From a virus (taxonomy: Duplodnaviria; Caudoviricetes): a DNA stretch of 64,000 bases. The DNA lies in IMG/VR virus record IMGVR_UViG_3300016667_000797, positions 14,374-78,373 of that record. The stretch is one strand, 5' to 3'. The first letter of the stretch is position 1; every line of letters begins with the position of its first letter. The notes below the pieces were generated by a model, which did no database searches, had not been told where the DNA came from, and saw only the letters and a list, made by a program, of their open reading frames with translations. Below, piece after piece: positions 7,306 through 63,910 of the stretch. A program made the translations under genes and the position numbers.

Positions 7306-7962
7306 ATGCAAAATCCGGAATTTAACACCCTGTGCGATGCAATCGCCGACGAGTTGCGACGCTTGGACTGGGTGTATTGTAAAGAAACAGACAAAGGCCT
7401 CCGGGTGTCCACCGAAGATTGCCTGAACAATCACGTCGCGCTGGTGGCTGAGGACGGTCGAGAATGGTCCGGACCTGCGGACCTGATACTGAGCCGATTG
7501 CGAGCTACGTCCAGCGGTACGACGATAAACAACTCCGCCCTGGATCTCTTGCTGGGCTCGCCTGTCAAACTAGCTAAATCAATAAGTCAGCAGCAAGACG
7601 AACTGACTAAGCTGGAAGCCAGTGCCCGTCTGTTACTGGATGACCTGGGCTACGTACCGGCCATGCTGGAAGACTCCATCGCAAAACGCATTGCTCGCCT
7701 GGCCAGGGCAAAGAAAGAAGTGCGGGATGATTTTGTCTGGACCCTTATGGGCAATAATCCCCGCTATCTTGTGGAGCGAGAAGCCAGCCAGGTCCTGGAC
7801 TACCTGCGTGAAACCCATGAACAGCAAATACGGCTATGTCTGACACTGAAGGACATTCTCGAGTTCTTTCAAGCGTCTGACAACTGCTGTAGCGCCGAGC
7901 TAAACTCACTGCTCAAGAAAGCCAACGCCGTTCTAGCGGAAGCCAAGGAGAATGTGCTATGA
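7306..7962 (+). CDS. Hypothetical protein
   Basis: AAAGGAG RBS; 218-aa ORF. Confidence 0.65.
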   Translation: MQNPEFNTLCDAIADELRRLDWVYCKETDKGLRVSTEDCLNNHVALVAEDGREWSGPADLILSRLRATSSGTTINNSALDLLLGSPVKLAKSISQQQDELTKLEASARLLLDDLGYVPAMLEDSIAKRIARLARAKKEVRDDFVWTLMGNNPRYLVEREASQVLDYLRETHEQQIRLCLTLKDILEFFQASDNCCSAELNSLLKKANAVLAEAKENVL

Positions 7963-8699
7963 AGTTGATCACGCCAGCGCCTGCTGTTACTCGCTTCACC
8001 GAGAACTTCAAGGCACCAAAACGCGGTGAAACCATCCTCTTCGACGCCCAGTCCTACATGGACTGGGCGTCTTTCGTACTGCCGCAGATGATCGGCATGA
8101 AACCGCTGCCCTACGACCGATCTCGTGTACTGAAGGAGGCCAAGGCGGTCGGGCAATACTACTTCTACGTCCGGCGACTGGAACCAGTTGGTTGCACGTT
8201 GTGGGGGCAGGAAGGACGATCCACGCTACCGATGGGTCGCAAGCAGAGAAAAACCTATTGCGCCTTTACAGACGCGGTAGACATTCCAATCGTGTGCAAC
8301 CGGTTCCTGGACCCGATCATGTCGCTCACGCCCAGCGAGGTCCTCACCCTCCGGTCGCAGGTGCGCTTGGCTCACGGTCAGGTGGCAATTGCCGGTCTGG
8401 GCATGGGTTGGCTTACCCGCCGTGTGCTTGACCGCACCAAGGTCGAGCATGTGACCGTAGTGGAGAAGGACCCCGGGATCCTGGCCTACTTTGGCGAGCC
8501 GATCAAACAGCAATATGGCGACCGCGTGACACTCGTGTGCGCAGACGCCTACGAATTCGACTACGCAAAGCACGATGTGGTGCTTTGGGATATTTGGTAC
8601 GGTTACAGCGATTCCAACAGTGACCCGAAGTTTCACCAGATCGCGACTGACCTGATCCAGCAGGGCAAGGTCTGCACAGGCTGGGGTTACGTTCACTGA
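7959..8699 (+). CDS. Class I SAM-dependent methyltransferase-like (spermidine-synthase-like fold)
   Basis: VAIAGLGMG motif I, VTVVEKD motif II, ADAYEF, VVLWDIW. Confidence 0.7.
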   Translation: MKLITPAPAVTRFTENFKAPKRGETILFDAQSYMDWASFVLPQMIGMKPLPYDRSRVLKEAKAVGQYYFYVRRLEPVGCTLWGQEGRSTLPMGRKQRKTYCAFTDAVDIPIVCNRFLDPIMSLTPSEVLTLRSQVRLAHGQVAIAGLGMGWLTRRVLDRTKVEHVTVVEKDPGILAYFGEPIKQQYGDRVTLVCADAYEFDYAKHDVVLWDIWYGYSDSNSDPKFHQIATDLIQQGKVCTGWGYVH

Positions 8700-8712
8700 T
8701 AAGGAGAGATTC

Positions 8713-9021
8713 ATGCTAGCAACGCAGTCGAAAACCCTGACCGTGGCAGGCAGCCACGGTTGGATTACAGCTGATGCTGAGACTGGATGTATTTTGCGGG
8801 TACAACTCAACGACTTTCCGTTTCTGTCCTCGGAGGACAGTTATACAAGGATCATTCGGATTGATGTAGCCGAATATCAACAGAAATACGGAAACCTTCC
8901 GGACGAGTTGGACATTCTTGACGTCGGCTATTGGACGGAAGACGATGGCTACGAACCTCCGTGCCAGGACTGGCGCGAAGATCGGGACAACATGAGAAAG
9001 TACGGTGATTTGTATGTCTGA
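8713..9021 (+). CDS. Hypothetical protein
   Basis: AAGGAG RBS. Confidence 0.6.
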   Translation: MLATQSKTLTVAGSHGWITADAETGCILRVQLNDFPFLSSEDSYTRIIRIDVAEYQQKYGNLPDELDILDVGYWTEDDGYEPPCQDWREDRDNMRKYGDLYV

Positions 9022-9451
9022 AGACACCTACAAGTGCCAGCGCTGCGGCGACGACAGCGACGACTTGCGCACACTCTGGCATGCCTGTCTCTACGACATG
9101 AATGAACTGAACGTACCATTCCGGCAACGACAAATTCACGGACAACTGATGGCCCACATCGGCGACGAGACGGTTGAGCTGTTGGGTCGCAAACGCACCG
9201 TGGCCAAGTTTGACAACATACCCGATGTGCCGCCGCGCAAATATCCGTTCTATACGCTGCGGGTCTGCAAGTCGTGCCGTGGCAGCTGGATGGCCGCGAT
9301 TGAGCACTGGTTCCAGCACGTCATCCCCGACCCAAGTCCTGGCACCGGTATCTTTGTCCGGCGCAACGGGGCCAACGTCGAGATCACTGAGGAGGAGTTC
9401 TATGCAGCCAGACAAAAGGTGGCTGACAGTCAAGCTCAACCGCCTGATTGA
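9014..9451 (+). CDS. Hypothetical protein with two CxxC pairs
   Basis: CQRC and CKSC. Confidence 0.6.
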   Translation: MSEDTYKCQRCGDDSDDLRTLWHACLYDMNELNVPFRQRQIHGQLMAHIGDETVELLGRKRTVAKFDNIPDVPPRKYPFYTLRVCKSCRGSWMAAIEHWFQHVIPDPSPGTGIFVRRNGANVEITEEEFYAARQKVADSQAQPPD

Positions 9452-9486
9452 CGTGCCGTGCGCAAACCCAGATAGGAGGTAACATA

Positions 9487-9717
9487 ATGCTGCCGTATGC
9501 TATCAAGCTAGTTGATACGCACATTTCCAACCTCAGGATTGGTGACACAGTCATCTATGCTGGCCATATGCGAACTTTGACCAAATCCAATCTTTCTCGC
9601 GGCTTCATGGGCCGTACGCTTTACGGTGACAGCCATAAGCTCGGATTGGTATCGGTTAAATTGGTACTGTTTCCCCGATTTCAACGGGGAAACTATGTTG
9701 GCCATTATCCCAAGTAA
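9487..9717 (+). CDS. Hypothetical protein
   Basis: AGGAGGT RBS before ATG 9487. Confidence 0.6.
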   Translation: MLPYAIKLVDTHISNLRIGDTVIYAGHMRTLTKSNLSRGFMGRTLYGDSHKLGLVSVKLVLFPRFQRGNYVGHYPK

Positions 9718-9865
9718 CGGAGTAACTGATGTCTCGAATAACCCAAACCAAGGGCGATGAGGCCCTGTCCGTGTTCCTGTTTCTGGTGCTGGCCTGTTGT
9801 GTGCTGGGTATGGAGTCTTGCGCCGAGTCCACAGCACGCTACCAGGCAGCCCAGCAGGCGCAGCC

Positions 9866-10426
9866 ATGATTACCGAACGTATGCTGCTCGACGAGCAGGA
9901 GCACTGGCGAACCTATTACCGTAACGCTTATCCGGTAAATCCGTTGTCTCATGACCCGTACGCGTCTCCTGAATCCGACCCGGTACAGAACGCAATCTAC
10001 AGTGAGCTGGGCGATCGCATTTGCCAGGCTTACCTGCGATTTGATTTGCTGGACCGTAAGATAGCTCAAGGTCATCTGTGCGACGGCTTGAGCTATGACA
10101 CGCTTACAGCGAAGTACGGCGTATCGAAAGAGTACATCCAGGTCATGCTGCATGACTTGCACGACCAAATTCACCAGATGCGTGGGTTTGGTCTGTATGT
10201 CGTCTCAATCTCCGAGTGGTTTCCCTCGCTAAGAGGTTATTACGCACTGGTAATGGAGGAACACACAGATGATCGCGGGCGAAACAAGGCGTACCGTTGT
10301 ACCTCTGACGCCCGAACAGCAGGCGCTCGTGTCACAAAACATGAGGCTGGTACCATGGTTCATGAAGCTCCATGGAATACCATTCGGGATGAGTTATTCC
10401 GATTACATGAGCTGCCTGTATCTTGA
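9866..10426 (+). CDS. Sigma-70 region-4-like HTH protein
   Basis: DPVQNAIYSELGDRI...DRKIAQGHLCDGLSYDTLTAKYGVSKEYIQ resembles sigma region 4; 3' end overlaps the next ORF and may be spurious. Confidence 0.45.
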   Translation: MITERMLLDEQEHWRTYYRNAYPVNPLSHDPYASPESDPVQNAIYSELGDRICQAYLRFDLLDRKIAQGHLCDGLSYDTLTAKYGVSKEYIQVMLHDLHDQIHQMRGFGLYVVSISEWFPSLRGYYALVMEEHTDDRGRNKAYRCTSDARTAGARVTKHEAGTMVHEAPWNTIRDELFRLHELPVS

Positions 10427-11102
10427 AATGTGCATAGTGACGCCCAAGCACGATGCCACTTTGGGCCGTTACAGCACTTTTATCATTGCCTGCCTCTGGC
10501 GCGCCCGCTGGCGTATCTTACGCAAGCTGGAGGCGCGACCGCGACCAGAGTCGTTGGATGCACATCTGGACGACCTGCTTCCCGGCGAAATGGATCAAGC
10601 TCTGGTAACGCCCGCGGTGGATTACTTGAGCAAAGTCTGTGATGCCGAGTTCTTGATCAACATCCGGTCGCTTGTCCGCGAACGTCACTGGAAGTTCTTC
10701 TGGGCTTACTATGCCGAAGACAAAACGCTCCAAGAAATTGGCGATATGCACAGGCTAACCCGAGAACGCATTCGCCAACTGGCAACAAAAACATTCGAGC
10801 GGGCCCAACACTGGGGTTATCTGTTCGAAACCTACGGCATATTGGCCTTGAGTACGATCAAGCGCAAACGTACCAGCCAAACCAAACAACCTAAACCTAC
10901 CAAAACGCAGGTGCTGGACGAACCTGATCAACCCACAAAGAAACCTAGGCAAATGCACATCTGGGCCGACTATGCGGCCAGTGAGCTGAAACCTCAAACG
11001 GAGGAATCCAAACATGAGTGCTACATCGACACAAGCGTCCACCAGCGCCGCTTTAGAATCGCTGGAACAGTGCCTGTACGGACACATCAGCAACGTCGCT
11101 GA
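10269..11102 (+). CDS. Sigma-70-family RNA polymerase sigma factor-like protein
   Basis: LTPEQQALVSQNMRLV...GRYSTFIIAC (region 2) and KTLQEIGDMHRLTRERIRQL (region 4.2); exact start uncertain. Confidence 0.75.
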   Translation: MIAGETRRTVVPLTPEQQALVSQNMRLVPWFMKLHGIPFGMSYSDYMSCLYLEMCIVTPKHDATLGRYSTFIIACLWRARWRILRKLEARPRPESLDAHLDDLLPGEMDQALVTPAVDYLSKVCDAEFLINIRSLVRERHWKFFWAYYAEDKTLQEIGDMHRLTRERIRQLATKTFERAQHWGYLFETYGILALSTIKRKRTSQTKQPKPTKTQVLDEPDQPTKKPRQMHIWADYAASELKPQTEESKHECYIDTSVHQRRFRIAGTVPVRTHQQRR

Positions 11103-12305: not shown

Positions 12306-12635
12306 ATGGTGGGAGAACACGCAGGCATGGAAATGCACGGAGGCCCTGAACGGCGCAAGAGGCGCTGCAAGCCCGAACCTTACTGGGTGAAGTTCTTCAC
12401 TGAGGAAGATCGGGAAAAGAAAAGGGTCGCGCACTGGAACACCGTGTCGCTGGCCGATGTCGGCATTCCGGTCCGGCTGGCCAACACGCTTGAGCAATAT
12501 GGCATCCTTACAGTCGGCGATCTGACCAGGCTCACGCTTGCCGACCTGGAAGAGATACCCAACCTGGGTGAGATCACCCGGGTCAGGTGCAGCCAACTCT
12601 TGGACCAGCTCAAGCTGCCCAACCACCTAAAATGA
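12306..12635 (+). CDS. Stand-alone RNA polymerase alpha-CTD-like protein
   Basis: SLADVGIPVRLANTLEQYGILTVGDLTRLTLADLEEIPNLGEIT matches the alpha-CTD HhH pattern. Confidence 0.75.
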   Translation: MVGEHAGMEMHGGPERRKRRCKPEPYWVKFFTEEDREKKRVAHWNTVSLADVGIPVRLANTLEQYGILTVGDLTRLTLADLEEIPNLGEITRVRCSQLLDQLKLPNHLK

Positions 12636-12641
12636 GTAGAT

Positions 12642-13296: not shown

Positions 13297-14181
13297 ATGG
13301 ATCCAAATCCGGATTTGAGTGAGGCCCTGTTTGCCTCTGCCTCGGTCGTTCCGAGGCTATCTGCTGTTACCGATAGTCTCGGACTTCGCCTGCTTCGAGC
13401 CTGCGTGTTACGTCCCTACTGTCAAGCTGGCGGCGCAACCGACGTGACGCAGGCGAGTTGGCTGCAACAGCAGCTTCGACAACAGTTCTTCCGCCTGATG
13501 CGTCAATACCCTGAAGCTCGGTTGCGATACACGTATCAGATGAACTGCCCTCCGGTTGGCCTTCGCATGCGACCTCAATCTCGCGTGTGCAACCATCCGG
13601 TTGTTTGTCCTTGGTGTCTGATCCGCAGACGAGCTCAACCTGCTTATGAGGAACTGATCAACGTACCAACGCTGGTTCGCGAGCCGCTTAAAGTTCTACT
13701 TTGGCGGCGAGTGGGTCCATTGAATTCGCGGTTCATCTTTTTTCCGGTTTACCAGGGGCCGCACACGTTGTGTCGGTCCGCCACCACAATTCAGCTGGGT
13801 ACCCCAGTGGGAGAGGCTGAGCACCAGTTGAGCATGCGCGTGACGGGTATCCAACTGGTTCCGAAGGACTTTGATGTAAAATCGGTATTGAGTTGTCCCA
13901 GCATACAACCCAAGCTGACGTTGAAGGAGTATCCCGACGCGGCGGATACCACGATATTTGACGCCGTGGTCCAGGCCTGCGCGTACGACTGTCGCGTCCC
14001 GCTGGCCGAAGCCAATCTTGCTACGTTCCATACACTGGCTCATTACCACAACACCCACGCCAAGACCCGGCTGTACCGGGTCAGCAAATACAAACCCCAA
14101 GGAGATCTTGATGGACATCAGCAGCCCACCGTATCCGAAGAACAACACCAGTCCTCAGCTGCTCTATCGCTATTTGACTGA
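13297..14181 (+). CDS. Hypothetical protein with Cys cluster
   Basis: GGAGG RBS; CNHPVVCPWC. Confidence 0.65.
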   Translation: MDPNPDLSEALFASASVVPRLSAVTDSLGLRLLRACVLRPYCQAGGATDVTQASWLQQQLRQQFFRLMRQYPEARLRYTYQMNCPPVGLRMRPQSRVCNHPVVCPWCLIRRRAQPAYEELINVPTLVREPLKVLLWRRVGPLNSRFIFFPVYQGPHTLCRSATTIQLGTPVGEAEHQLSMRVTGIQLVPKDFDVKSVLSCPSIQPKLTLKEYPDAADTTIFDAVVQACAYDCRVPLAEANLATFHTLAHYHNTHAKTRLYRVSKYKPQGDLDGHQQPTVSEEQHQSSAALSLFD

Positions 14182-16790: not shown

Positions 16791-16814
16791 TCCTGTCAAC
16801 GCCTGACCAAACGT

Positions 16815-17793
16815 CTAGTTTAGGCTTGATATGTTAGGGCGCGGTTGGGTTTGCTACGGCGGGGTATGGTTGGGTATGGTGAGGCTCGGGCCGCAAGGCT
16901 AGTTTTGGCGAGGTACGGTTCGGCTGGGCGAGGCAAGGTCTGGCGAGGTCTGGTAATGCCTGGGCCGCAAGGCTAGTTGGGTGTGGTTGGACGCGGCGAG
17001 GTAGCGCCTGGTGTGGTGGGGCTTGGCAGGGCTCGACGTGGGCCGCAAGGCTAGCGAGGTTTGCTCTGGTTGGGCAGGGTCCGGTCTGTCAGGGTCCGGT
17101 CTGACAGGGGCCGAGAGGCTAGTTCAGGTTAGGCGAGCTAAGGTGAGGTGCGTCAAGGCGATGTCTGGCGGGGTCTGGTTGGGGCCGTAAGGCTAGTAAG
17201 GCCTGCCGTGGTGTGCAAAGGTAAGGCACGGTACGGCGTAGCAAGGTCAGGGCCGGAAGGCTAGTTTGGCAAGGCGTGGTGAGGCCTGTTCTAGGCTGGG
17301 CAGGGCAGGGGCCGCAAGGCTAGCATGGTGTGGTAAGGCACGGACTGGTCTGGTACGGTGAGGACAGGTGAGGACAGGCAAGGTCTGGGCCGTAAGGCTA
17401 GTTACGGTGTGACCTGGTTGGGTGAGGTATGGTAATGCGAGGCGCGGTTAGGCTGGGTCAGGCTTGGGCCGCAAGGCTAGTCCGGTGAGCCATGGTAAGG
17501 TCGGGTTTGGCAAGGTCGGGTATGGTGTGTCAAGGGCCGAAAGGCTAGTTTTGGTATGCCCTGCCAAGGTAAGCCACGGCAAGGTGCGGTTTGGAACGGT
17601 TTGGGCCACAAGGCTAGCAAGGCTGGGTGTGGCGTGGCGTGGCGAGGTATGTCGAGGTCTCGTCAGGCGCGGTCCGGTCTGGTTAGGGCCGCAAGGCTAG
17701 TACGGTTTGCCGTGGCGGGGTACGGTTTGCCATGGCGGGGTTCGGTCTGCCGTGGCGGGGTCAGGTTCGGTGAGGCAAGGGCCGCAAGGCTAG
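16815..17793 (+). repeat. Non-coding array of 13 units: (GGY-NN)8-15 tracts separated by a 15-nt repeat GGGCC-GNRA-GGCTAG (candidate guide-RNA array)
   Basis: Repeats start at 16888, 16962, 17040, 17108, 17182, 17250, 17309, 17387, 17466, 17534, 17603, 17686, 17779; tracts are 3 or 4 + 5n nt (one has 1 extra base); 114 of 147 pentamers begin GGY by hand count. Confidence 0.95.
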
Positions 17794-17823
17794 AGTTCAC
17801 ACAAACCATTTACAGAGGAAAAC

Positions 17824-19035: not shown

Positions 19036-19379
19036 ATTTCGGGCTAAGATAGGCACGACAACCAAACATTTACCCGGTGACTATGCTGATGTACATTTGG
19101 TTGGCGCGCGTCGTGTGGGTGGTCCTTTTTCAGCCGCTTTCGTTCCAAACAGATCAAGGGCAGGATCGGCCCTTGAGCGGCGCACGCCGACCAAATGTAC
19201 ATCAGTATCGCCGGTAGGTGTTTTGCATTTCTCCAGTGGTGATGCCGCCTTGTATCTCAGGCGGCGTGTGGTGGGTGTTCGGCTTTCCTTTGACTTTGTA
19301 GCCATAGCGCCTCAACCGAATCGAGAACAGGATCGGTTCTCGAGCGCCACACAAACCACTGGATGTTCAAATCTGGAAT

Positions 19380-19769
19380 TTAACCGCTGACGTGATTCAT
19401 CTTGCAGTCCGCAAACTCGTCCTGGTTCACCAGGCTGGTGATCTGGTTCTTCAACGCGACGCGTTGGCGGTTCAGATCGCGCACGACAATGGCACGGCGG
19501 CCGACCTCTTCCAGGCCCAGGCGGTCATCCAGACCCTTGCGGATTGCCCATTCGGCGTCCCAGATCTGGCCGTTGATCTCTCGCAGGTCGACGATCAGGT
19601 TTTGTAGTGGTATGTTGCGTGGGTCGACACCGGACCAGTAGTAGGCAATCTGTTTCCGCAATCCTTGTTTGTCCAGCTCGTCATCGGGCAACCGCTCGTA
19701 TTTGAGCTGGGCAATGGTCAGCCGGTCGCAGAGCTCGCAGATGGGCATGGCGATGGCTTTCACAGACAT
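19380..19769 (-). CDS. DUF6165-like protein
   Basis: CELCDRLTIAQLKYER...LREINGQIWDAEWAIR...DLNRQRVALKNQI resembles the DUF6165 pattern (from memory). Confidence 0.6.
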   Translation of the reverse strand: MSVKAIAMPICELCDRLTIAQLKYERLPDDELDKQGLRKQIAYYWSGVDPRNIPLQNLIVDLREINGQIWDAEWAIRKGLDDRLGLEEVGRRAIVVRDLNRQRVALKNQITSLVNQDEFADCKMNHVSG

Positions 19770-38612: not shown

Positions 38613-38645
38613 CTTCAATTCCAGATTTTAAGAAGGACCCATGAC

Positions 38646-43639: not shown

Positions 43640-43670
43640 GTTTCAATTCCGGATTTTAGGAAGGACACCG

Positions 43671-51026: not shown

Positions 51027-51827
51027 ATGGCGGCGAAGATCGGTTTCATCTGCCCGACGTATGACGCGATCGTCCTGGACGGTTACACGCGCAAGGCGTT
51101 GTCGTCGTTCTTCGCCAACACTCCAGACGGCGTAGCCATCGTGGTTGACGATGGCTCGACGGACTGGAACGACGACTACGAGCAGTCGTTGCGGGATCTG
51201 GCGGCGAAATATCACGACGCCAGCATCCACATCCATCACTTTGCAGGCAACGGCGGTTTGACGCGAAGCTGGAACAAGGGCCTGGCGATCGCGGATGAGC
51301 TGGGCCTGGACTACGCCATCGCAGGCAACAATGACATTGTCTTTTCTACCCATTACTATCCGCCGCTGCTGCAAGTGCTGGAGCGGGGTTATGCCCTGGT
51401 TGGACCGCTCTCGAATGCTCCCGGTATTACGGCCAAGGGTCGGCAGGAGATTGATCGACACTTTCCCGACTACGAGTTGAGTGACGATGACCTTTACGTC
51501 AACACGGTTTCGGTAAAACTACAGCAGAAGTTCGGCACCACAGCGTTGGAGAGTCCGATCAACGGATTCTTCCAAATGGCCAAAATGGAGAGCTGGCGGG
51601 CTGGTAAATACGACGAAACATATTATTATCGTCCCGTGAACACGCACACATCACGCGGCCAACGTAATCCGACGCCGCTGATGACGCTCAATGAGGATGA
51701 GCTGCAAGAGCGCTGGCGAGCCAAAGGCATGAAAGCCGCCATCGCACTGGGCAGCTTTATCTTCCACTACCGAGCCGTGTCGCGTGGTGACCGCTATAAA
51801 CGAGGCAAGTGGTACAGGCAAACATGA
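51027..51827 (+). CDS. Glycosyltransferase family 2-like
   Basis: FICPTY, VVDDGS, GLTRSWNKG, GNNDIVF, FIFHY. Confidence 0.8.
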   Translation: MAAKIGFICPTYDAIVLDGYTRKALSSFFANTPDGVAIVVDDGSTDWNDDYEQSLRDLAAKYHDASIHIHHFAGNGGLTRSWNKGLAIADELGLDYAIAGNNDIVFSTHYYPPLLQVLERGYALVGPLSNAPGITAKGRQEIDRHFPDYELSDDDLYVNTVSVKLQQKFGTTALESPINGFFQMAKMESWRAGKYDETYYYRPVNTHTSRGQRNPTPLMTLNEDELQERWRAKGMKAAIALGSFIFHYRAVSRGDRYKRGKWYRQT

Positions 51828-52546
51828 GTACGGTATTGGTCTACAGCTGCGTCACGGGTGATTACGACAAAGTCCACAACTCGCTGCTCGCGTCGATAGG
51901 CCAAGCTGAAGAGGATGTTCGCTACGTGCTCTATACCGACCAAGTCGTCAATCCTGACGGCTCGAGTCGGTTTCGTCATTCCAGCTCCAACATCCAGTGG
52001 GAAATCAAGCCGCTGGTTTGGCAGCACCCGTTCTGTAACCGCCGCACGGCCCGCTGGCACAAGATCAACAGTCACCTGCTGCCGGACAAGGCCGACATCA
52101 CGATCTGGCTGGACGGCTCACAGCGGTTGAAGGATGTCGGCATCCGTGACCATGTGCTGGATGTGCTGCCCAAGTATTTCGGACTGGCTACGTTTCGCCA
52201 TCCGCAACGTGTTTGTGCCTACCAGGAGCTGGATGCCTGTATTCAGCTCAAGAAAGACAACGTGGCTTTGATGCAGCGACAGATTTCCAACTACAGGGCC
52301 GAGGGTTATCCACCCTATAACGGCCTGGTTGAGACTGCCTGCGTAGTACGGCAATCCATAAGCGCGGGCTCAACACGCGCAGCTACGGCGTTCAACCAGC
52401 TCTGGTGGGATCAGGTCAACACCCACAGCTACCGGGATCAACTTAGTTTCAACTATGTTGCCTGGCGGCTGAAGCAGCGCTACTCCGTCATCCCCGGATG
52501 CCGCGCAAAATCCGGATTTTGCGATTTTGTGCCTCATGCATCCTGA
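51824..52546 (+). CDS. DUF616 (TOD1/MUCI70-like) glycosyltransferase
   Basis: VYSCVTGDYD, IWLDGS, RHPQRVCAYQELDAC, RDQLSFNYVAW. Confidence 0.75.
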   Translation: MSTVLVYSCVTGDYDKVHNSLLASIGQAEEDVRYVLYTDQVVNPDGSSRFRHSSSNIQWEIKPLVWQHPFCNRRTARWHKINSHLLPDKADITIWLDGSQRLKDVGIRDHVLDVLPKYFGLATFRHPQRVCAYQELDACIQLKKDNVALMQRQISNYRAEGYPPYNGLVETACVVRQSISAGSTRAATAFNQLWWDQVNTHSYRDQLSFNYVAWRLKQRYSVIPGCRAKSGFCDFVPHAS

Positions 52547-52563: not shown

Positions 52564-53634
52564 ATGCTCAAAGTAGGCATTTACGTCGATTACGTGCGAG
52601 GTGAGACTGCGCTGGCGGCAACCATGCTGGCCGACTGGCTGACCCGGCTCGGCTTCGGCGTGGTGCTGATGTCGGATGGCGTGGTCCAGCGTGGCATTCA
52701 CCCGTACTGGGATAATCACGTGCGCCGGGCCTTGAAGCGGAATGATGTCTGTGCCTGGGCTTATGGCTGCACGCACATTTGTTGGTTCACGCCCAGTCTG
52801 TTTGCCATGGAAGCCGCCTACGTGGTAGCACCGGACAGCGTCAAACGAAAGATGCGGCACTTCTACTTCCCCAGCTGGGGCAGCTGGATGCAGCTGGACG
52901 AAGAGTTTCTGATGCTGGTGGATCGAGTCATCTGCCTGTCTCGTGATATGGCCAGCTGGCTCGATCACAAGTATCCGACGCTGGCCGTGCCTCGCACGCA
53001 CCACTTGCTCGCGTCACCCACGCAAGTCACCCAGGGTCGATATGGTCGGACGCAGCGGGACAGTACGAGCCTGCTGGTCGTCCTACCCCGCACAATTGAC
53101 ATCGACCTCGACATTGATTTCCTGGAGATCTTCAGCGAGCTGATGGACTGGCATCCGCATCTGTATGTCAGCTTCCTGCCGGAACGCTCCATGCTCAAGG
53201 ATTATCGCAGGCACATGCAGCGAACAATCATACGGTTTCAGCATCGTGCCCAGCTTTTGCCAGTGTCCAACTATAGTGACTATGCGCGCATCGCCCGTGA
53301 GCACGACTGGGTCTATCTGGCCAGCACGCGACACAAGTACGGGTCATTGCTGGCTTCACTGCTGCCGGGCACTTCGCCCGTGATTACATCCAATCTGCCG
53401 CCAGCTCCGCGGTATATCTCGGACACGACCAGCGGCCTGCTGGTAGGCTGCGATACGATTGAGCATCCGTATCCGATTGCCGAGGTAGACAAGTCAGCGA
53501 CTCACTCTATACTGGACAAGCTCTTCATGGCACCGGAGACGACGTTACGGGGTATGCAGGCGGTCGCCCTGTCGTCGTTTCAACGCAAACAGCGCCTGTT
53601 CTCCGAGTTTCTGCATCAAGAATTCATGGCATGA
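52564..53634 (+). CDS. Possible GT-B glycosyltransferase-like protein
   Basis: Located in the GT cluster; AREHDWVYLAS...SPVITSNLP resembles the GT-B C-terminal region. Confidence 0.4.
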   Translation: MLKVGIYVDYVRGETALAATMLADWLTRLGFGVVLMSDGVVQRGIHPYWDNHVRRALKRNDVCAWAYGCTHICWFTPSLFAMEAAYVVAPDSVKRKMRHFYFPSWGSWMQLDEEFLMLVDRVICLSRDMASWLDHKYPTLAVPRTHHLLASPTQVTQGRYGRTQRDSTSLLVVLPRTIDIDLDIDFLEIFSELMDWHPHLYVSFLPERSMLKDYRRHMQRTIIRFQHRAQLLPVSNYSDYARIAREHDWVYLASTRHKYGSLLASLLPGTSPVITSNLPPAPRYISDTTSGLLVGCDTIEHPYPIAEVDKSATHSILDKLFMAPETTLRGMQAVALSSFQRKQRLFSEFLHQEFMA

Positions 53635-54242
53635 CGCACCATCCATACAACATCCTCGTCGCAGGGACGCCCGGGGCATACACCTATATCGTGGCCAGGC
53701 ATCTCGCGCGCAGGGGATGGTCGGTGCTTTGGCCGGGCCAGGAACGGGAGATCGAGCCCGTTCACTTTGCGTTCCAGCAAAGCGCGCAAAACTACGAAGC
53801 GCAGCGGATCCACGAACGGATCTGCGCCAACGCCGAGGCAAACATCCTGTCGGATGCACTGCCCACCTACTACGACATGCCGTATCCTGGACCGCAGGAG
53901 TTCATCCAGCAGTTCGGGAAAGCCAACGAGGTTGTCATTTCGGCGCCTTCAATCTCCCCCTTTCTTGACATCTGGCTGCCGACGGCGGACATCGTCATCG
54001 ACATCCAGGCGACCGAGGAGGAAGACCTGCGCGTCTTGGCGCAGTGGACCCAAAAATCGTTTCCTGAGAACTACCTCAGGGCGATTCGCCGTTGTTACCT
54101 GGAGCGGTACAATAGGCACTTGAAGCTCTTTCCCCGTGTAATCACCTTGGCGAACGCGGATGTCGCCCTGGAATTGCTGGATCCGGTTACCGCGCTTGCG
54201 GACGAGGCCAAAAACCCATGGACAATCTTGAAGATCGACTGA
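53631..54242 (+). CDS. Hypothetical protein, weak sulfotransferase/P-loop-like N-terminus
   Basis: ILVAGTPGAYTYIVARHL. Confidence 0.35.
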   Translation: MTHHPYNILVAGTPGAYTYIVARHLARRGWSVLWPGQEREIEPVHFAFQQSAQNYEAQRIHERICANAEANILSDALPTYYDMPYPGPQEFIQQFGKANEVVISAPSISPFLDIWLPTADIVIDIQATEEEDLRVLAQWTQKSFPENYLRAIRRCYLERYNRHLKLFPRVITLANADVALELLDPVTALADEAKNPWTILKID

Positions 54243-55615
54243 ATGCATCCTTGAGTCAGGCGACAGGCTCATTCAAGCCTGCACTCGCCCCATCAATCGA
54301 CGCACCCAATATGCCTACGGCTCCGGACTCGATCACACCGGTGGCACCCAAGAAGAAGATAATCAAGCCCAGCGGTCCGCTCGAGCTGGCCCCAGGTAGC
54401 TCTCCGGCGCTGCCGATTGCACCGCCACCGCCCCAGCAGACAGTCGCTCCTGTGCAAGTGGCCCCTGGCGTCGTCCCGATCGGAAATGTCGCCGCCACGC
54501 TCGCTCCCTCAGCCCATCGTCAAGCCATGACCCAAGTCGTGGTCAACGATACTTTTCCCTATGACGTGGCGTTCAACATGGCCTTCTTAGGCTCAGGTCA
54601 AGGCGGCGCCCGCCTTGCGTCGAGCTTCTATGGCCTGGGTTACCGTCGGATCGGCCTGTTCAACACGGCCGAGAGCGACTTCCAGGGTCTGCCTGACGAG
54701 ATCCAGCGACACACGCTGCAGCTGGGTGGTGCAGCGAAAGATGCTCGATTTGCGGAACAAGCCATCAACGGCCACGAAGAAGAGATCTGGGACCTGCTTC
54801 AACGCAGCTGGGGCAACGACATGGACTACGGTCTGGTGTGCGTTGGCCTGGGTGGCGGTACAGGCTCGGGCACGAGTGGTCGCCTGGTGCAGATCGCTCG
54901 TGAGTACATGCAGTCCAAGGGTAAGCCACCCCGTGTGGGCGTGATCGCGTCGATCCCGAGTCCGAACGAAGGGCAGCAAGTCTGCCGCAACGCCGTCACG
55001 GCGTTCCAGCGATTGCTCGAACTCAAGGTCAGCCCGCTGATCCTGATTGACAACGCGAGGATCAATGCCCTGTATCGTCCAGGCATGACGCAGCTCTACC
55101 CGGTGGCCAACAACACCGTGAGCCAACTCTTCCACCTGTTCAACCAGCTTGCTGCGGTACATAGCCCGCTCATCACGTTTGACCGGAGTGAACTGGCGCA
55201 GCTCCTGGACAACGGCATCTGTGTCATGGGCGCGGCGAGCATCAACAACGTCACCAGCCCAGCGGATATTTCAGCCGCGATCAGGGACCAGCTCACCAAC
55301 AATGTCCTGGCTGAGGTCGATCTCACGCAGGGCACCAAGGGCGCGTGCTTGTTCGTGGGTGACCAGAACCACCTGGACAACCTGAGCCTCGACTTCTTCG
55401 AAGCGGGCTTCACGCAGATGAACCGGACGCTCAAGGGTGGCACATCTGTGGTGCACCGTGGTGTCTACATTGGCGCGGCACCGGGCCTGCAAGCCTATGC
55501 CATGATCAGTGACCTGAAGCCACCGGTAGCGACCCTGGCGAAGCTGGCCAAGGAGGCCAACATCACCAAGGCGCAGCTGGGGGGACTGGCGCAGTTTTTG
55601 GGTGTGAATGACTGA
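54218..55615 (+). CDS. Tubulin/FtsZ-family GTPase (PhuZ/TubZ-like) with Pro-rich N-terminal extension
   Basis: FLGSGQGGARLA (GQxG), FNTA, GLGGGTGSG tubulin signature, IDNA, TFDRSEL T7-loop equivalent. Confidence 0.88.
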   Translation: MDNLEDRLNASLSQATGSFKPALAPSIDAPNMPTAPDSITPVAPKKKIIKPSGPLELAPGSSPALPIAPPPPQQTVAPVQVAPGVVPIGNVAATLAPSAHRQAMTQVVVNDTFPYDVAFNMAFLGSGQGGARLASSFYGLGYRRIGLFNTAESDFQGLPDEIQRHTLQLGGAAKDARFAEQAINGHEEEIWDLLQRSWGNDMDYGLVCVGLGGGTGSGTSGRLVQIAREYMQSKGKPPRVGVIASIPSPNEGQQVCRNAVTAFQRLLELKVSPLILIDNARINALYRPGMTQLYPVANNTVSQLFHLFNQLAAVHSPLITFDRSELAQLLDNGICVMGAASINNVTSPADISAAIRDQLTNNVLAEVDLTQGTKGACLFVGDQNHLDNLSLDFFEAGFTQMNRTLKGGTSVVHRGVYIGAAPGLQAYAMISDLKPPVATLAKLAKEANITKAQLGGLAQFLGVND

Positions 55616-55656
55616 CTCGATTTTTCAAGCACTTTCATCTTTCCCTGGAGGAAGCC

Positions 55657-55968
55657 ATGAATGACATCACGGAATACGGTCGATCGGGTGAACTCAGTGA
55701 CCTGATCACGTATCTGGAAGCCAACTATCGTCGGGAGCGCGGGCTTTTGCCCACTGATATGCTGCTCGATGATGACTTCGTATCCTGGGCCAAGCAGCAT
55801 CTGTCTGACAACAGGCCCAACGAAGTCTTCGCGGTGGATAACAACTACGGCATCTTGTTGACCAATGGTCAGCGGATTAAACTCTCGCCTGATCCGCAAG
55901 GCTATGTGCCGTCCAACGGCGACATGGCCAACCCGGATTCGTCGATCTCGATCATGCAGACCCGCTGA
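55657..55968 (+). CDS. Hypothetical protein
   Basis: GGAGG RBS. Confidence 0.6.
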   Translation: MNDITEYGRSGELSDLITYLEANYRRERGLLPTDMLLDDDFVSWAKQHLSDNRPNEVFAVDNNYGILLTNGQRIKLSPDPQGYVPSNGDMANPDSSISIMQTR

Positions 55969-58949: not shown

Positions 58950-59525
58950 TTGATGTCACGTAAGGATGCCGAAATCGAGCAAAAGGTCAAAGACAACATT
59001 CGGCTGGTACCGTACATCCTCAAGGATATGCGGAACATACCTGAGGTGCGGGATGACCGGGATTGGGCTGAGTCGTGCGCGCTATGGGGACTCTACAAGG
59101 CGGCACGCACTTATAATCCTACGGTCGGTAAATTCAGCACCTATGCCGCAGTCTGTATCAAACGTGAGATCTTGCGCGAGGTTGCCCAGTATTGCCGGGC
59201 GCAGAAGCGGGACTCTCGCCGCACCCGAGTCTCGGACAAGGTTGGTTTGCGGAAATCAACACCAGCAGAGCTACCTACATTTGAAGGTTATGGTCGTCTG
59301 CCTGAGTTGCTCGACTGTTTGACCCCAGGGCAACGTCACGTGGTGGAAGAACACTTTGGGCTTTATGCTGAACCAAAGACGCTGGCACAGCTTGGACGTG
59401 AGCTGCGCATCACGCGCAATGGTGCGCGCACGCGTCTCACTGCGGCGTTGTCGCGCATGCAGCGCTACGCCGAGAAGCAGCGACTTGAGCTGCAAGACAA
59501 TCAGGTTATCCGCGCAGGAGCCTAA
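58950..59525 (+). CDS. Sigma-70-family sigma factor-like protein, tandem paralog A
   Basis: NIRLV, GLYKAARTYNPTVGKFSTYAAVCIKREI (region 2), KTLAQLGRELRITRNGAR (region 4). Confidence 0.8.
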   Translation: MMSRKDAEIEQKVKDNIRLVPYILKDMRNIPEVRDDRDWAESCALWGLYKAARTYNPTVGKFSTYAAVCIKREILREVAQYCRAQKRDSRRTRVSDKVGLRKSTPAELPTFEGYGRLPELLDCLTPGQRHVVEEHFGLYAEPKTLAQLGRELRITRNGARTRLTAALSRMQRYAEKQRLELQDNQVIRAGA

Positions 59526-59539: not shown

Positions 59540-60118
59540 ATGACAAAGGAATTGACAGCTACGCCCGAAGAAATCGAGCAACGGGTCAACCAGAACCAAA
59601 AACTGGCCTGGCTGGCCGTGCGGCGCACGCAAGGATATGCAGAAGTGCGTCGAGACCCGGACTGGTTTTTATCTTCAGCCATGTTCGGCCTGTTCAAGGC
59701 TGCGCGTACCTATGATCAGTCAAAGGGACAGTTCAGTACTTACGCGGTGACTTGCGCACGTTGGGAGATCACGCGAGAAGTTCACTTTTTGCGATCCAAG
59801 AAGCGAGATCAGACGCGTACACGCCAGCTTGAGGACTTTGACGCAATCGGCACGGCGGACGCGCCTCCGGAATTTGAGGGCTACGCGCATCTGGATACTC
59901 TGCTGTCGTGTCTGAACGCCGAACAGCGTGAGTTGATCAGCAAGCACTATGGCTTGATTGGCCAGCCGATGTCCCGCACGGAGCTTGCTCAGGAACAGCG
60001 GTGTTCGGTGGAATCTGTCCGAACCCGGCTGTTGAGGATTTATCGCAAACTGCAGTTACAGGCAAACCATCTCAAGCTGGATTTGCGCGATTGTCAACTT
60101 GTACCGCGGGATTCGTAA
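59540..60118 (+). CDS. Sigma-70-family sigma factor-like protein, tandem paralog B
   Basis: NQKLA, GLFKAARTYDQSKGQFSTYAVTCARWEI, MSRTELAQEQRCSVESVR. Confidence 0.8.
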   Translation: MTKELTATPEEIEQRVNQNQKLAWLAVRRTQGYAEVRRDPDWFLSSAMFGLFKAARTYDQSKGQFSTYAVTCARWEITREVHFLRSKKRDQTRTRQLEDFDAIGTADAPPEFEGYAHLDTLLSCLNAEQRELISKHYGLIGQPMSRTELAQEQRCSVESVRTRLLRIYRKLQLQANHLKLDLRDCQLVPRDS

Positions 60119-60656: not shown

Positions 60657-60666
60657 GGAGCACAGC

Positions 60667-61014
60667 ATGTCGGAACCTGAATACCTGAAGCTGATTCCGG
60701 ACGAGATCACGCAGGCGATGCTGGACCAGCTGGAGTCGCTGGCAATCCAGCTGGTCTCTAACCAGTCGCTTTCAATTCCGGATTTTAACAATTGGATCTG
60801 GAAGTTCGCCCCGGCGCTGGTGCTGGGCCTGCTCAGGAAAGACAAAACAAAAGAACAGGAGATCGCCGCCTTGAAGCTGACGATCTCCCGGTTGGCTGAG
60901 ATGCTGTACGACGCACAGCGACGGATCTACCCGGACATCAAGCCGATTGACATCGAGGCACTGTTGGCTGAGTCGCGTAAGATTCTAGCTGATGCCCAAC
61001 AGACCTCTTCCTGA
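60667..61014 (+). CDS. Hypothetical protein
   Basis: GAGGAG RBS. Confidence 0.65.
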   Translation: MSEPEYLKLIPDEITQAMLDQLESLAIQLVSNQSLSIPDFNNWIWKFAPALVLGLLRKDKTKEQEIAALKLTISRLAEMLYDAQRRIYPDIKPIDIEALLAESRKILADAQQTSS

Positions 61015-61039
61015 CCCAGAGCCGCCAAGAGGTACTTAA

Positions 61040-61498: not shown

Positions 61499-61576
61499 TG
61501 GGTTTCTCCTGGGTTGAGAAATGGAACTTGGACATGGTAGCAACCACAGCCGCGAACGCCAAGAAGGAGACGACCC

Positions 61577-61855: not shown

Positions 61856-61856
61856 C

Positions 61857-62084
61857 ATGGATCTGGAGGAGTTGCGGGCGCGATACGAGAAAGAGGCCAG
61901 ATACACCAACCGGTGGCTGGCTTTTTTGCTTTTGATCTGTATGATTGGTCTGACCTTGGCGTTCTACGAGATCTACCAAGAGGAACAGAAGTATGTGCGG
62001 AGCCGATGGAAAACGCCCTGTCGGCCTGTAACGAGTCCCGCAACAGCTTTGCCTTTTACCGGGGCGAAGAGCCCACCGACATGA
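61857..62084 (+). CDS. Small single-pass membrane protein
   Basis: WLAFLLLICMIGLTLAFY hydrophobic segment. Confidence 0.45.
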   Translation: MDLEELRARYEKEARYTNRWLAFLLLICMIGLTLAFYEIYQEEQKYVRSRWKTPCRPVTSPATALPFTGAKSPPT

Positions 62085-62284
62085 AGGACTGGACGGTATG
62101 AAACTGATGCTGATTTCAATGCTGGTTTCCACTCTTACTGCGCTGGCAGTCTGGGGGGTATTCCTCACAATACTTATTTTGCGAGAGCAGTCAGGTCTGG
62201 CATCGTTCCGACCCAATAAGGATCGTAAGGAATGATCGGCGAAACTGCTGCGGCGCTGAAGACGAATGTTCACGGGGGCAATCA

Positions 62285-62527
62285 ATGGGCAGCGTTACAA
62301 CACACTACTGCGATAGATGCAAGAAAACAGTCAGCAAAGATAAGCTCATTGCAGTTCTTGTAGGTAGCTCACAGGGAGAAGAAGTCTGCCGCGAATGCGC
62401 TATAAGAGCACATACTTCTGGAGTTGTCGTTTCCATAGCTGATGGCACTCTGGATGCGTTTGAAAATCAGATCCAGCTGTTAAAAACTCAGGAGGCCGGA
62501 CTTACATGGTCGGGAGCACAGACGTGA
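62285..62527 (+). CDS. Small Cys-pair hypothetical protein
   Basis: YCDRC and VCREC. Confidence 0.5.
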   Translation: MGSVTTHYCDRCKKTVSKDKLIAVLVGSSQGEEVCRECAIRAHTSGVVVSIADGTLDAFENQIQLLKTQEAGLTWSGAQT

Positions 62528-62871
62528 CGCTGAAGGCGGTGGGCGATCCGGAGACCGTGGAAGCCTTCGCAAGGCTAATCCAGCATGTCTGGCCTACGGC
62601 CCAGTACGAGGACGCAGGCACCGGCGCCAAGTATGACGACCTGGGTGACATTCCCTTTGGGCAAGCCAAGGAGCTATTGGTCTATCCCGATTGGAGCACG
62701 ATGCAGCTCTGGGACGAGGGGCGAGAGGCACCGGAGAATTCCTTGACTGCCCTTGTGTGCCGGGATCAGGATGTTACACTGGTTTGCGACGCTCCCCAAA
62801 GGGGGACAATTCAAACCATTCTGGAAGGCGCCCGTGGCCTGACCCGGTCGCTGCGAGGAAGCTGGGTATGA
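62506..62871 (+). CDS. Hypothetical protein
   Basis: 121-aa ORF with AGGAGG upstream. Confidence 0.55.
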   Translation: MVGSTDVTLKAVGDPETVEAFARLIQHVWPTAQYEDAGTGAKYDDLGDIPFGQAKELLVYPDWSTMQLWDEGREAPENSLTALVCRDQDVTLVCDAPQRGTIQTILEGARGLTRSLRGSWV

Positions 62872-63218
62872 GTGACAATCATTTGCTGCTGAAACTCTAT
62901 TCGGCGTTACAACTGGCGTACCCGCTGATCAAAGCCAACTCTATGGAGAGTGGTGAGAAGTATGACCGCTACGTTTACCAGGAAGCCCACAACGCCCTGG
63001 TAGAAATGGACGGTCGGGACGAACCCTGTAAGGTCGTCAAGGTTGGCATTCCGGAGATCCGCAAGTACATGAAGACCTGTGAGGATCCGATGACCAAGCT
63101 GATCTACCGCCGCTGGGAAGAGGCTCGCCGGAAGAATTCCATGTGGTGTAGCCGGGTGGCCAAGCTGGAAGAAGAAGTCGCACGGCTGAAGGGTTGGCTT
63201 GCACCGCAGGAGGAGTGA
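62868..63218 (+). CDS. Hypothetical protein
   Basis: Start chosen at MSDNHLLL by ATGA overlap. Confidence 0.5.
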   Translation: MSDNHLLLKLYSALQLAYPLIKANSMESGEKYDRYVYQEAHNALVEMDGRDEPCKVVKVGIPEIRKYMKTCEDPMTKLIYRRWEEARRKNSMWCSRVAKLEEEVARLKGWLAPQEE

Positions 63219-63910
63219 TGTGGGTTGACATAGATGCCGTCAACGACAACGATGAGCGCACGGACATCACGGCCGAGGTCTACCGGATCTTCGATCACTG
63301 GATTCAGGTGGAGCGGGATACCAAGACAAAAACCTGTGACCTGCTGGTGTGCGACCTGGTCAACACTCTGATCAGTGTAGGTCTGGTCAGACCGATCCCA
63401 AAGGAGCAGCAAGTGACGAAACTCAAAGATAAGTGTGTCGTTGAGCTAGTGGCAGATGACGACAGGGCTCTGGTAGCTTGTCTTAACCGGCATGATATAG
63501 GCTATGAGCTGGTCACGACCGATTATGCGAATAACAATAGTCCCGTCATATTTAAGTTGGCGGTAAGCGACTACCTGAAAGTGAAGGACGAATTGCAGCT
63601 GATTTTGAAGAAGCAGCAAGTGAAAGACGGAGATCGGCTGAACTGTCTGTTTGATTTGAGGGAAGCGTTGATACGCGCGCTCAAGGCGTACACGCCAATA
63701 CTGCCAACACCACCGTCGTTGGCAGTCGAGCTGAAAAAGGTGGATGACGAGATTTGCACTCTCGACAGGTTCTACTTCACGCGCCTGCAGTTGCATGGCA
63801 CACCGGATGGTTGGACGAAGGAGGCAACGCAGCTGTTCGCGACCTACGCACTGTACCTGGAAGACGAACTGAAGAAGCTAAAATCCGGAATTGAAGGATC
63901 CACGACATGA
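63218..63910 (+). CDS. Hypothetical protein
   Basis: AGGAGGAG RBS before MWVDIDAV. Confidence 0.55.
   Translation: MWVDIDAVNDNDERTDITAEVYRIFDHWIQVERDTKTKTCDLLVCDLVNTLISVGLVRPIPKEQQVTKLKDKCVVELVADDDRALVACLNRHDIGYELVTTDYANNNSPVIFKLAVSDYLKVKDELQLILKKQQVKDGDRLNCLFDLREALIRALKAYTPILPTPPSLAVELKKVDDEICTLDRFYFTRLQLHGTPDGWTKEATQLFATYALYLEDELKKLKSGIEGSTT

Follow-up and report, generated by a model that had tools for sequence, protein, structure and literature searches.

The window analysed here is a 64,000-nucleotide stretch of viral DNA (bases 14374-78373 of a 78,373-bp contig that is 37% complete). It comes from a lineage of uncultured phages with ~190-kb genomes transcribed almost entirely one way; the lineage also carries tubulin and its own RNA polymerase. 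The palindrome AAWTCCGGAWTT occurs in nine exact copies in the window and in 11 in the whole contig (78 kb), the two further copies lying upstream of the window. All nine copies listed by the original prediction were found at their coordinates, as were its near-copies at 19369, 36614, 38617 and 50627; two more near-copies were located at 35185 and 42046. The predicted 17-mer is present at 43642, at 60771 and, reverse-complemented, at 63879. The sites, listed without strand, and two alpha-CTD-like genes are as follows.

4265-4903, plus strand: second alpha-CTD-like domain, fused here to DUF6915; the relatives' orthologs are shorter (119-137 aa)
7311-7322: gene-junction site, exact (AAATCCGGAATT), 5 nt beyond the ATG of ORF 7306-7962; the preceding gene ends 37 nt before
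12327-12635, plus strand: candidate reader of the palindrome, a 102-aa protein whose N-terminal arm is basic and which carries an RNA polymerase alpha C-terminal (HhH) domain
13305-13316: exact site AAATCCGGATTT; the surrounding stretch, downstream of the alpha-CTD-like gene, is poorly coding
19369-19380: one-mismatch site AAATCTGGAATT adjoining a minus-strand gene upstream of the SbcD-like gene
23267-23278: exact site within the SbcC/Rad50-like gene, in reading frame 1; lineage-specific
30180-30191: exact site within the primase gene; 126 nt separate it from the gene's stop and the start of the DNA polymerase
35185-35196: one-mismatch site AAATCTGGATTT, a TCTGGA variant
36614-36625: one-mismatch site AAATTCGGAATT
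38617-38628: one-mismatch site AATTCCAGATTT in a 33-nt gap; the gene before the gap is the one following the recombinase
42046-42057: one-mismatch site AAATCCGGCTTT
43645-43656: exact site, intergenic between a RusA-like/PDDEXK_15 gene and a conserved 362-aa gene, its centre 21 nt before the ATG
49205-49216: exact site AATTCCGGAATT within an intein-like insertion of a 968-aa gene
50627-50638: one-mismatch site CAATCCGGATTT
52508-52519: exact site within the final 39 nt of a glycosyltransferase gene, the next gene starting ~50 nt further on; core of the 20-bp palindrome 52504-52523, which is perfect as claimed
60774-60785: exact site within a genome-specific 115-aa ORF; two tandem ECF-like sigma genes lie ~650 nt upstream
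63881-63892: exact site 24 nt ahead of the stop of a 230-aa ORF

The copy at 49205, earlier described as lying inside an intein, does lie inside an insertion of ~330 aa that occurs in this genome only (orthologs of the 968-aa gene are ~636 aa long), and the identity of the insertion is less secure, its match to Intein_splicing being weak (E 5.5e-5) and below the Pfam cut-off. Dinucleotide-preserving shuffles gave an expectation of ~0 for the exact word, with a copy in 0 of 100 shuffles, and of 0.46 for sites at up to one mismatch, of which 15 were observed. A codon-preserving null, which the original prediction had named as its check, leaves the enrichment intact: the contig holds 8 intragenic copies against a mean of 0.05 and a maximum of 2 in 200 synonymous-codon shuffles, and two relatives hold 9 against 0.15 and 12 against 0.17. 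All 13 related contigs that were found carry 2-15 copies, with zero for the reversed-word control, and the word is common to genomes of 43-56% GC. The 15 unrelated viral contigs, picked for holding one copy, contained only that copy each.

The full element is the symmetric 18-mer TTAAAWTCCGGAWTTTAA, of which AAWTCCGGAWTT is the core. A weight matrix of 94 sites, oriented by the coding strand, showed mirror symmetry out to +/-9 and neither a further asymmetric element nor an AT-rich flank. No orientation bias was found, though more than 90% of the genes lie on one strand, and mixed half-sites are present in both orientations on this one-strand genome. The two W positions do not co-vary: AAATCC is joined to AATTCC in 40 of 62 sites, indicating that they are unpaired.

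Sites occur in all three reading frames as well as between genes, most being intragenic and some lying inside essential genes (primase, RNAP and baseplate). Gene junctions are nevertheless 5-fold enriched; there the site falls directly between the stop codon and the next ribosome-binding site, and in nine cases 20-28 nt separate its centre from the ATG. Selection acts on the DNA itself. In a 741-aa gene the peptide changes (QIPDF versus SNPEF) while the DNA remains within the motif, and elsewhere the [KN]SG[FI] peptide is retained while synonymous changes destroy the site. Among codons for the same residue, third-position identity was 0.63 in the motif versus 0.42 in the flanks (p=0.004). One site is found every ~6-12 kb, and the spacing is more even than chance: across seven genomes the coefficient of variation of the intervals was 0.35-0.61 (p=0.002-0.04 for six, p=0.17 for G002). 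This evenness could partly stem from a one-site-per-operon logic rather than from a structural role.

The conservation in relatives that the original prediction called for was found at some positions in orthologous genes and junctions, across genomes of 43-56% GC. The primase site at 30180 occupies identical codons in G001-G003 and takes a one-mismatch form in G004; the intergenic site at 43645 is retained in G004 and G003 and deviates at one base in G001; and exact sites occur in the neighbourhood of 19369 in G001, G003 and G004. More distant syntenic relatives (G007, G008 and G010) lack the AAWTCCGGAWTT word and carry sister A-tract palindromes, namely TAAATAGYRCTATTTA, CTCAAAASCGSTTTTGAG and CAAAACSGTTTTG, respectively. 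All three sister words lie mostly at junctions; those of G008 and G010 are evenly spaced, the five copies of G007 are not, and the asymmetric centres of the G008 and G010 words point either way. The 38617 junction is the most deeply conserved position, occupied in G001, G003, G004, G007, G008 and G010, each with the word of its own clade. Two homologous positions are common to distant relatives: the post-recombinase-operon junction, occupied in each of the four word-clades, and the primase 3' site, which is filled in G010 by that genome's own word AAAACCGTTTT. Because sister lineages each retain a palindrome of their own at these same places, the palindrome represents a real DNA signal, one that is symmetric, selected at the DNA level, evenly spaced, lineage-specific and partly conserved in position.

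The earlier proposal that these are sites bound by a dimeric protein has good support in the strict two-fold symmetry to 18 bp, the absence of orientation bias, the non-covarying W positions, the DNA-level selection and the sister palindromes in sister clades. A reader that is phage-encoded and co-evolving is suggested by the single word common to genomes of 43-56% GC and by the separate words of the syntenic relatives. We infer that a protein dimer reads the site, that this reader is of phage origin, and that its binding acts as follows. A phage-encoded homodimeric DNA-binding protein would dock on the 18-bp two-fold symmetric double-stranded site and co-evolve with it, while selection would hold one site per ~6-12 kb of the unidirectionally transcribed genome, placed in junctions where possible and otherwise written through coding sequence. 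Bound dimers could then serve as genome-wide boundaries or organisers, that is, as roadblocks, insulators between transcription units or chromosome anchors, and would act like KorB operators or Cluster O dyad repeats rather than as transcription starts. This role of boundary or organiser is preferred over initiation as our leading, still tentative, reading. A roadblock within the primase, RNAP or baseplate gene would be costly unless binding were timed, and the position at junctions would also be compatible with a promoter giving a very short leader or with a signal at the RNA level.

Among published systems the Cluster O mycobacteriophages come closest; their lytic-looking genomes contain dozens of invariant 17-bp dyad repeats (TGTTCGG-NNN-CCGAACA), many intergenic and about one third coding, with an asymmetric centre that has no fixed orientation to transcription (Cresawn et al. 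2015, PMC4351075). Those authors predicted a dimeric DNA-binding protein with a role other than initiation (PMC4351075). The phages studied here share with Cluster O inverted repeats that are dispersed, both inter- and intragenic, and not tied to promoters. However, the present lineage is unrelated, the sequence differs, the geometry is 9-0-9 rather than 7-3-7, and the density of ~1 per 6-12 kb is lower than the ~1 per 2 kb of Cluster O; even spacing, intragenic DNA-level selection and clade-specific words at homologous positions further distinguish the sites described here. The KorB operators (OB) of the IncP-1 plasmid RK2 are another dispersed set, with about a dozen copies of a ~13-bp palindrome whose arms are A/T and whose centre is G/C, some at promoters and some far away, all read by one dimeric protein that acts globally. 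KorB is a ParB-family protein on a plasmid, whereas the sites here belong to phages and no ParB_N domain was detectable in five genomes. Noc and SlmA, which both interact with the tubulin homolog FtsZ, dock as dimeric organisers on 12-16 bp palindromes (NBS and SBS) scattered along bacterial chromosomes. The NBS of Noc (ATTTCCCGGGAAAT), with A/T arms and a CCGG-like centre, appears similar in layout to the present palindrome; the two host systems rely on ParB or TetR folds, and no such domain was found here. Cluster A mycobacteriophages, which are temperate, carry many dispersed short stoperators in short intergenic gaps, where the bound protein (L5 gp71) blocks elongation. Stoperators are asymmetric and oriented with transcription, whereas the present sites are symmetric, unoriented and mostly intragenic; in site design they do not match the suggested repressor/stoperator network.

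An unlikely alternative is that the palindrome recruits the polymerase of the phage's own transcription system, with transcripts beginning at its edge and having very short leaders. The relatives encode a fused beta/beta'-N RNAP, the window contains two ECF-like sigmas and two alpha-CTD-like proteins, and the distance to the ATG at the nine junction sites would suit such leaders. Intergenic searches returned no other repeated word apart from the Shine-Dalgarno sequence, and in G004 a terminator-like hairpin immediately precedes two of the sites, which would leave the next gene in need of a promoter at that point. Sigma promoters, however, are bipartite and asymmetric, whereas the matrix shows a single symmetric 18-mer, with no conserved asymmetric flank and no -35/-10 layout. 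The perfect symmetry without orientation bias and the G008 and G010 centres facing either way also argue against a promoter, as does a site lying upstream of the terminator in two orthologous loci. Furthermore, many conserved sites lie deep within genes, remote from any start; conserved intragenic sites are 600-1000 nt away from the next gene start, as are about half of the deeply conserved sites. The phage-sigma or activator element suggested earlier is accordingly not favoured. The palindrome was also rejected as an intrinsic terminator: it lacks a stable G+C-rich hairpin and T run, and ordinary hairpin-plus-T terminators are present elsewhere in these genomes, separate from the sites.

Slightly less probable still are replication or recombination sites, at which an initiator, priming, nicking or loading event would be regularly placed for multi-point copying or recombination of the ~190-kb genome. 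The even spacing across lineages (the five copies of G007 excepted) is consistent with this, a palindrome presents its word on both strands, and several of the most deeply conserved sites fall in the replication/recombination module: one within the primase gene ahead of polA, others behind the recombinase operon, ahead of sbcD-sbcC and behind the resolvase. Yet AT-rich unwinding flanks and iterons are absent, known primase and nick motifs are short or asymmetric, and a nick at a symmetric site would yield a double-strand break.

Improbable, too, are centromere-like sites through which an adaptor would tie phage DNA to the phage tubulin filament, as had been suggested earlier. Dispersed centromeres are known in prophage N15, and a tubulin-family gene is present at 54218-55615, in all close relatives and in G008. 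This suggestion is weakened by the distribution of the sites, which do not cluster near the tubulin gene (the nearest is 1.7 kb away), and by G010, which has 10 spaced palindromes and lacks tubulin both at the syntenic locus and in the rest of its 88-kb contig, an absence that counts weakly because the contig is 39% complete. No TubR-like or ParB-like partner was detected, and the genes neighbouring tubulin gave no HTH match. The sites being dispersed, they do not correspond to a TubZRC-type tubC, with iterated sites beside tubR-tubZ and a small wHTH TubR.

An RNA-level element, either a short hairpin or a GGA site through which phage CsrA homologs would control translation of the downstream gene, is highly improbable. 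Two CsrA homologs occur in relatives, TCCGGA contains GGA, the Shine-Dalgarno sequence that follows junction sites by 12-18 nt contains GGA as well, and the G008 word could form a 7-bp stem. However, the sister words lack GGA, most sites are intragenic, the W pair is mismatched in 65% of sites, and the halves are equally conserved as sequence without compensatory variation. No stable hairpin was predicted: the mean MFE was -1.2 to -2.4 kcal/mol, no better than random windows in G000, G004 and G010. Finally, that the word simply reflects composition, codon usage or a recurrent peptide, or marks a miniature mobile element, is already refuted, since the recurring [KN]SG[FI] peptide encoded by frame-0 sites outlives the DNA site and is itself outlived by it, copies occur in three frames plus intergenic DNA and number ~0 under both shuffles, and the common sequence is the 18 bp alone, with no repeat in the flanks.

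For the preferred docking sites of a phage dimer, two candidate readers were considered. The 102-aa alpha-CTD-like protein has orthologs in 8 of the 8 genomes compared and keeps the residues, Arg and Asn, that match R265 and N268 of the E. coli domain. A candidate GerE-type HTH protein of 69-73 aa is encoded in G001, G003, G004 and G011; its region lies outside the G000, G007, G008 and G010 contigs, and in G002, which has 7 exact sites, a glycosyltransferase-like gene occupies its syntenic place. The palindromic, dispersed, orientation-independent layout is that expected of parS-like sites. A six-frame search of G000-G004 for ParB_N (PF02195, E<=0.01) gave 0 matches, with control genomes positive, which is no proof of absence because the proteins here are very divergent. 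It is conceivable, if doubtful, that an undescribed family of phages, with tubulin, a multisubunit RNAP of its own and UDG-PolA, employs a private word and its co-evolving reader to mark the chromosome at regular intervals of ~6-12 kb as a phage organisation or self-marking system without a described equivalent, the reader perhaps being the stand-alone alpha-CTD-like HhH protein gripping the A-tract arms.

Dispersed dyad repeats of the Cluster O type have been seen before in lytic phage genomes and never explained. The new element is comparative evidence that DNA-level selection on the word extends through essential genes, that spacing and not just exact positions is maintained, and that sister lineages swap the word and retain some places. 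If the sites serve genome-wide organisation or self-marking rather than gene regulation, they would add a new layer to the chromosome biology of phages. The question can be tested, since an 18-bp probe is defined, four specificity variants occur naturally and the candidate readers form a short list.

Nine exact copies of the palindromic word AAWTCCGGAWTT were found in the window, at precisely the positions of the original prediction, compared with none in 100 dinucleotide-preserving shuffles. With up to one mismatch, 15 sites were obtained against 0.46 expected, comprising the exact copies, the four near-copies already recorded and two additional one-mismatch sites at 35185 and 42046. The predicted 17-mer was likewise correct (43642, 60771 and, reverse-complemented, 63879), as was the perfect 20-bp palindrome at 52504-52523. 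Two further copies were located upstream of the window on the contig, whose 78,373 bp (the window being bases 14374-78373) were estimated to be 37% complete. The enrichment also withstood the codon-preserving null proposed with the prediction: when synonymous codons were shuffled within genes, eight intragenic copies were observed on the contig against a mean of 0.05 (maximum 2), and the same shuffle in two relatives gave 9 observed against 0.15 and 12 against 0.17.

The motif is a trait of the lineage. Between 2 and 15 exact copies were present in each of the 13 contigs that encoded a recombinase at least 61% identical or had the GerE gene in common, and the reversed-word control was zero in every one of them. 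The G+C content of these contigs ranged from 43% to 56%. A collection-wide 16-mer scan retrieved clade members and unrelated viral contigs; of 17 such contigs examined (up to 328 kb), 15 had a single copy only, and the other two had 3-4 copies and are probably additional fragments from the clade. The lineage has no cultured relative, since an 8-kb megablast query matched nothing among cultured-phage records and tblastn of the DNA polymerase returned matches only ~25% identical. Relatives of 157-194 kb were retrieved via the recombinase. One of them, G004 (194 kb, 94% complete), was shown by its gene order to be circularly permuted with respect to the window's contig (G000) and the close relative G001, its 174-190 kb region matching the start of G000; this would fit a complete genome of ~194 kb with circular permutation or terminal redundancy.

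A weight matrix derived from 94 sites, exact or with one mismatch and oriented by coding strand, was mirror-symmetric (TTA-AAWTCCGGAWTT-TAA), and past +/-9 it contained no conserved base and no AT-rich flank. The W positions were unpaired, AAATCC being combined with AATTCC in 40 of 62 exact sites, and in three of four lineages the sites did not surpass random windows in RNA folding energy, indicating that two half-sites are selected rather than a hairpin or cruciform. The orientation of mixed half-sites followed no consistent pattern. Near-cognate sites, mostly TCTGGA/TCCAGA variants, also greatly exceeded expectation, and one junction conserved them in variant form. The original proposal of binding sites for a dimeric protein is upheld to the extent that these facts fit sites on double-stranded DNA for a putative homodimer (hereafter the reader); the effect of its binding is what we infer.

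Sites occurred intergenically and in all three reading frames. In a 741-aa gene, the peptide was QIPDF in one lineage and SNPEF in another, and the motif was satisfied by both DNAs; in several genes, the [KN]SG[FI] peptide was retained and the site was abolished by synonymous changes. Among three divergent lineages, third-position identity in codons for the same residue was 0.63 within the motif versus 0.42 for flanking sequence (Fisher p=0.004). This signal held even though approximately half of the intragenic sites were lineage-specific in the same comparison, showing that sites persist yet turn over.

Exact sites were intergenic in 29% of cases versus 5.6% of random positions. The gaps bearing them were short, made up almost wholly of the site plus the ribosome-binding site that follows, and junction sites often overlapped or followed a stop codon, with the centre 20-28 nt upstream of the next ATG. 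The other sites were intragenic, often 600-1400 nt from any boundary, within genes including those for the primase, a repair exonuclease, a baseplate protein and an RNAP subunit. Spacing was more even than chance (interval CV 0.35-0.61; p=0.002-0.04 in six of seven genomes tested), and the minimum gap between sites exceeded 1.4 kb. For the close relative G002 (7 sites), the evenness p was 0.17; its exact-site density, 0.45 per 10 kb, was the lowest. A link between sites and terminators was rejected, as their adjacency did not go beyond that explained by a common intergenic location.

The motif was absent from three more distant syntenic relatives (recombinase 32-44% identical); each of them had a private palindrome flanked by A/T arms:

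G008: CTCAAAA[GCGG/CCGC]TTTTGAG, eight copies, mean interval 12.5 kb
G010: (C)AAAAC[C/G]GTTTT(G), ten copies, mean interval 7.8 kb, CV 0.35
G007: TAAATAGYRCTATTTA, five copies, four of them intergenic

Seven of the eight G008 copies sit 3-9 nt past a stop codon, and the asymmetric centres of the G008 and G010 words showed no consistent orientation. The short gap after the recombinase-following gene (window 38617, one mismatch) held a site in all four word-clades, and the site at the primase 3' end, ~128 nt upstream of polA, was common to the motif clade and G010. Approximately 3 of 21 mappable sister-clade sites lay within ~25 nt of a motif-clade site, where chance is ~1% per site by our own arithmetic. 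The retention of one word over a 13-point G+C spread, together with different words at the same places in sister clades, argues that the putative reader would be phage-encoded and co-evolving with its sites.

Pfam and PHROGs searches of ~70 proteins from the window or its relatives were mostly blank. The following features were recognised, in window coordinates except for the last, which lies on a contig of G001:

4970-5509: dCTP-deaminase-like gene
10269-11102: 277-aa protein with a sigma region-4 HTH
30315-33956: UDG-PolA fusion DNA polymerase (PF03167 and PF00476)
33908-34588: thymidylate kinase gene, adjoining the polymerase
48119-51025: 968-aa protein (conserved form ~636 aa) with a ~330-aa insertion, a weak intein-splicing match
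51027-52546: two glycosyltransferase genes
58953-59525 and 59540-60118: two tandem ECF-like sigma factors (regions 2 and 4)
L027:12695-17161: 1488-aa fused RNAP subunit, with beta Rpb2 domains 3 and 6 and N-terminal beta' Rpb1 domains 1 and 2

The window further encodes replication and recombination genes (SbcC-like, helicases, a DnaB-like helicase, primase, PolA-type polymerase and UvsX-like recombinase), a RusA-like resolvase and a tubulin-family GTPase. The UDG-PolA protein is 1213 aa long versus ~1150-1160 aa in relatives. The dCTP-deaminase-like, thymidylate kinase and glycosyltransferase genes, and ThyX, which is present in relatives, may be a sign that nucleotides, DNA or virions are modified. 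The ~330-aa insertion contains one palindrome copy; none of the seven relatives compared has it. A 623-aa conserved protein was rejected as a nucleus-shell protein, its profile finding no match among PDB sequences. Orthologs of the fused RNAP subunit occur in G002-G004, and the encoding of this beta/beta'-N fusion indicates a lineage with its own multisubunit RNA polymerase, which co-occurs there with tubulin and a family-A DNA polymerase. BLAST found no orthologs of the two ECF-like sigma factors or the 277-aa protein in close relatives; in G010, three tandem region-4 proteins closely precede one of the palindromes. In every genome, over 90% of genes are on one strand.

In the favoured reading, bound dimers would act genome-wide as a boundary or organiser. 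This is preferred over initiation because the element lacks polarity in a genome read in one direction, conserved sites lie deep within genes, and density and spacing stay constant despite turnover of individual sites. The first two points weigh against a promoter or activator element, an option of the original prediction that is nevertheless kept alive by the junction placement of sites, by the phage's own transcription apparatus and by a k-mer search for other repeated intergenic words (e.g. a separate promoter), which returned only the Shine-Dalgarno sequence and the palindrome. A role in replication or recombination is possible, as several of the deepest sites fall in that module. The suggestion of tubulin-centromere sites is weakened: sites were not associated with the tubulin gene, and G010 retains its palindromes with no tubulin at the syntenic position or anywhere in its 88 kb. 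There, G010:77508-79020 matches window 52564-55968 as an otherwise syntenic block lacking the tubulin gene and the preceding 172-aa gene, and a G010 palindrome is located inside the resulting gap. A CsrA/GGA RNA reading was rejected on the grounds of site symmetry and the sister words. Each of the relatives G001-G005 has two CsrA-family genes (in G001, for example, 105934-106086 on the minus strand and 9559-9714), one of them being among the few minority-strand genes.

Among published cases, the nearest is a 17-bp dyad repeat in Cluster O mycobacteriophages, which is present in more than 30 copies, one third of these within coding sequence, and has no orientation; the authors of that study predict binding by a dimer for a process distinct from initiation (PMC4351075). 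KorB operators, stoperators and Noc/SlmA sites work comparably, but tests on the window's sites did not find their defining features.

Two weak candidates for the reader were found, the 102-aa alpha-CTD-like protein and a GerE-type HTH protein; they are listed with a second alpha-CTD-like protein of the window:

12327-12635: stand-alone 102-aa alpha-CTD-like protein, with a basic arm and an alpha C-terminal (HhH) domain
4265-4903: second alpha-CTD-like protein, fused to DUF6915 in the window's genome only
L015:10422-10643 (a relative's contig): 73-aa GerE-type HTH protein

The 102-aa protein is conserved in all eight genomes compared and keeps the Arg and Asn equivalents of E. coli alpha R265 and N268, which enter the A-tract minor groove; A-tract arms are present in all four words. 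A literature search for such palindromic sites and for phage-encoded alpha-CTD proteins gave no result. GerE-type HTH proteins, which occur in relatives at 69-73 aa, belong to a class whose dimers bind palindromes of 16-20 bp. This candidate is weakened by being missing in G002, and its homologs are confined to the motif clade, so that they offer no independent test; the region of the gene lies outside the coverage of partial contigs. In G002, a 253-aa glycosyltransferase-like gene (G002:86736-87497) stands where G001, G003 and G004 have the GerE-type gene. No ParB_N domain was present in a six-frame domain search of G000-G004, and Pfam and PHROGs were uninformative for the genes flanking the most conserved site.

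Other short words unrelated to the palindrome were also highly repeated, for example CGCAAGGCTAG (9 copies, window ~16800-17800), GGTCCACAAGG (G001, 43 copies) and GGAATTAGCG (G004, 12 copies), which look like tandem arrays; highly repeated short words of this kind also occur in G002, G003 and G007.
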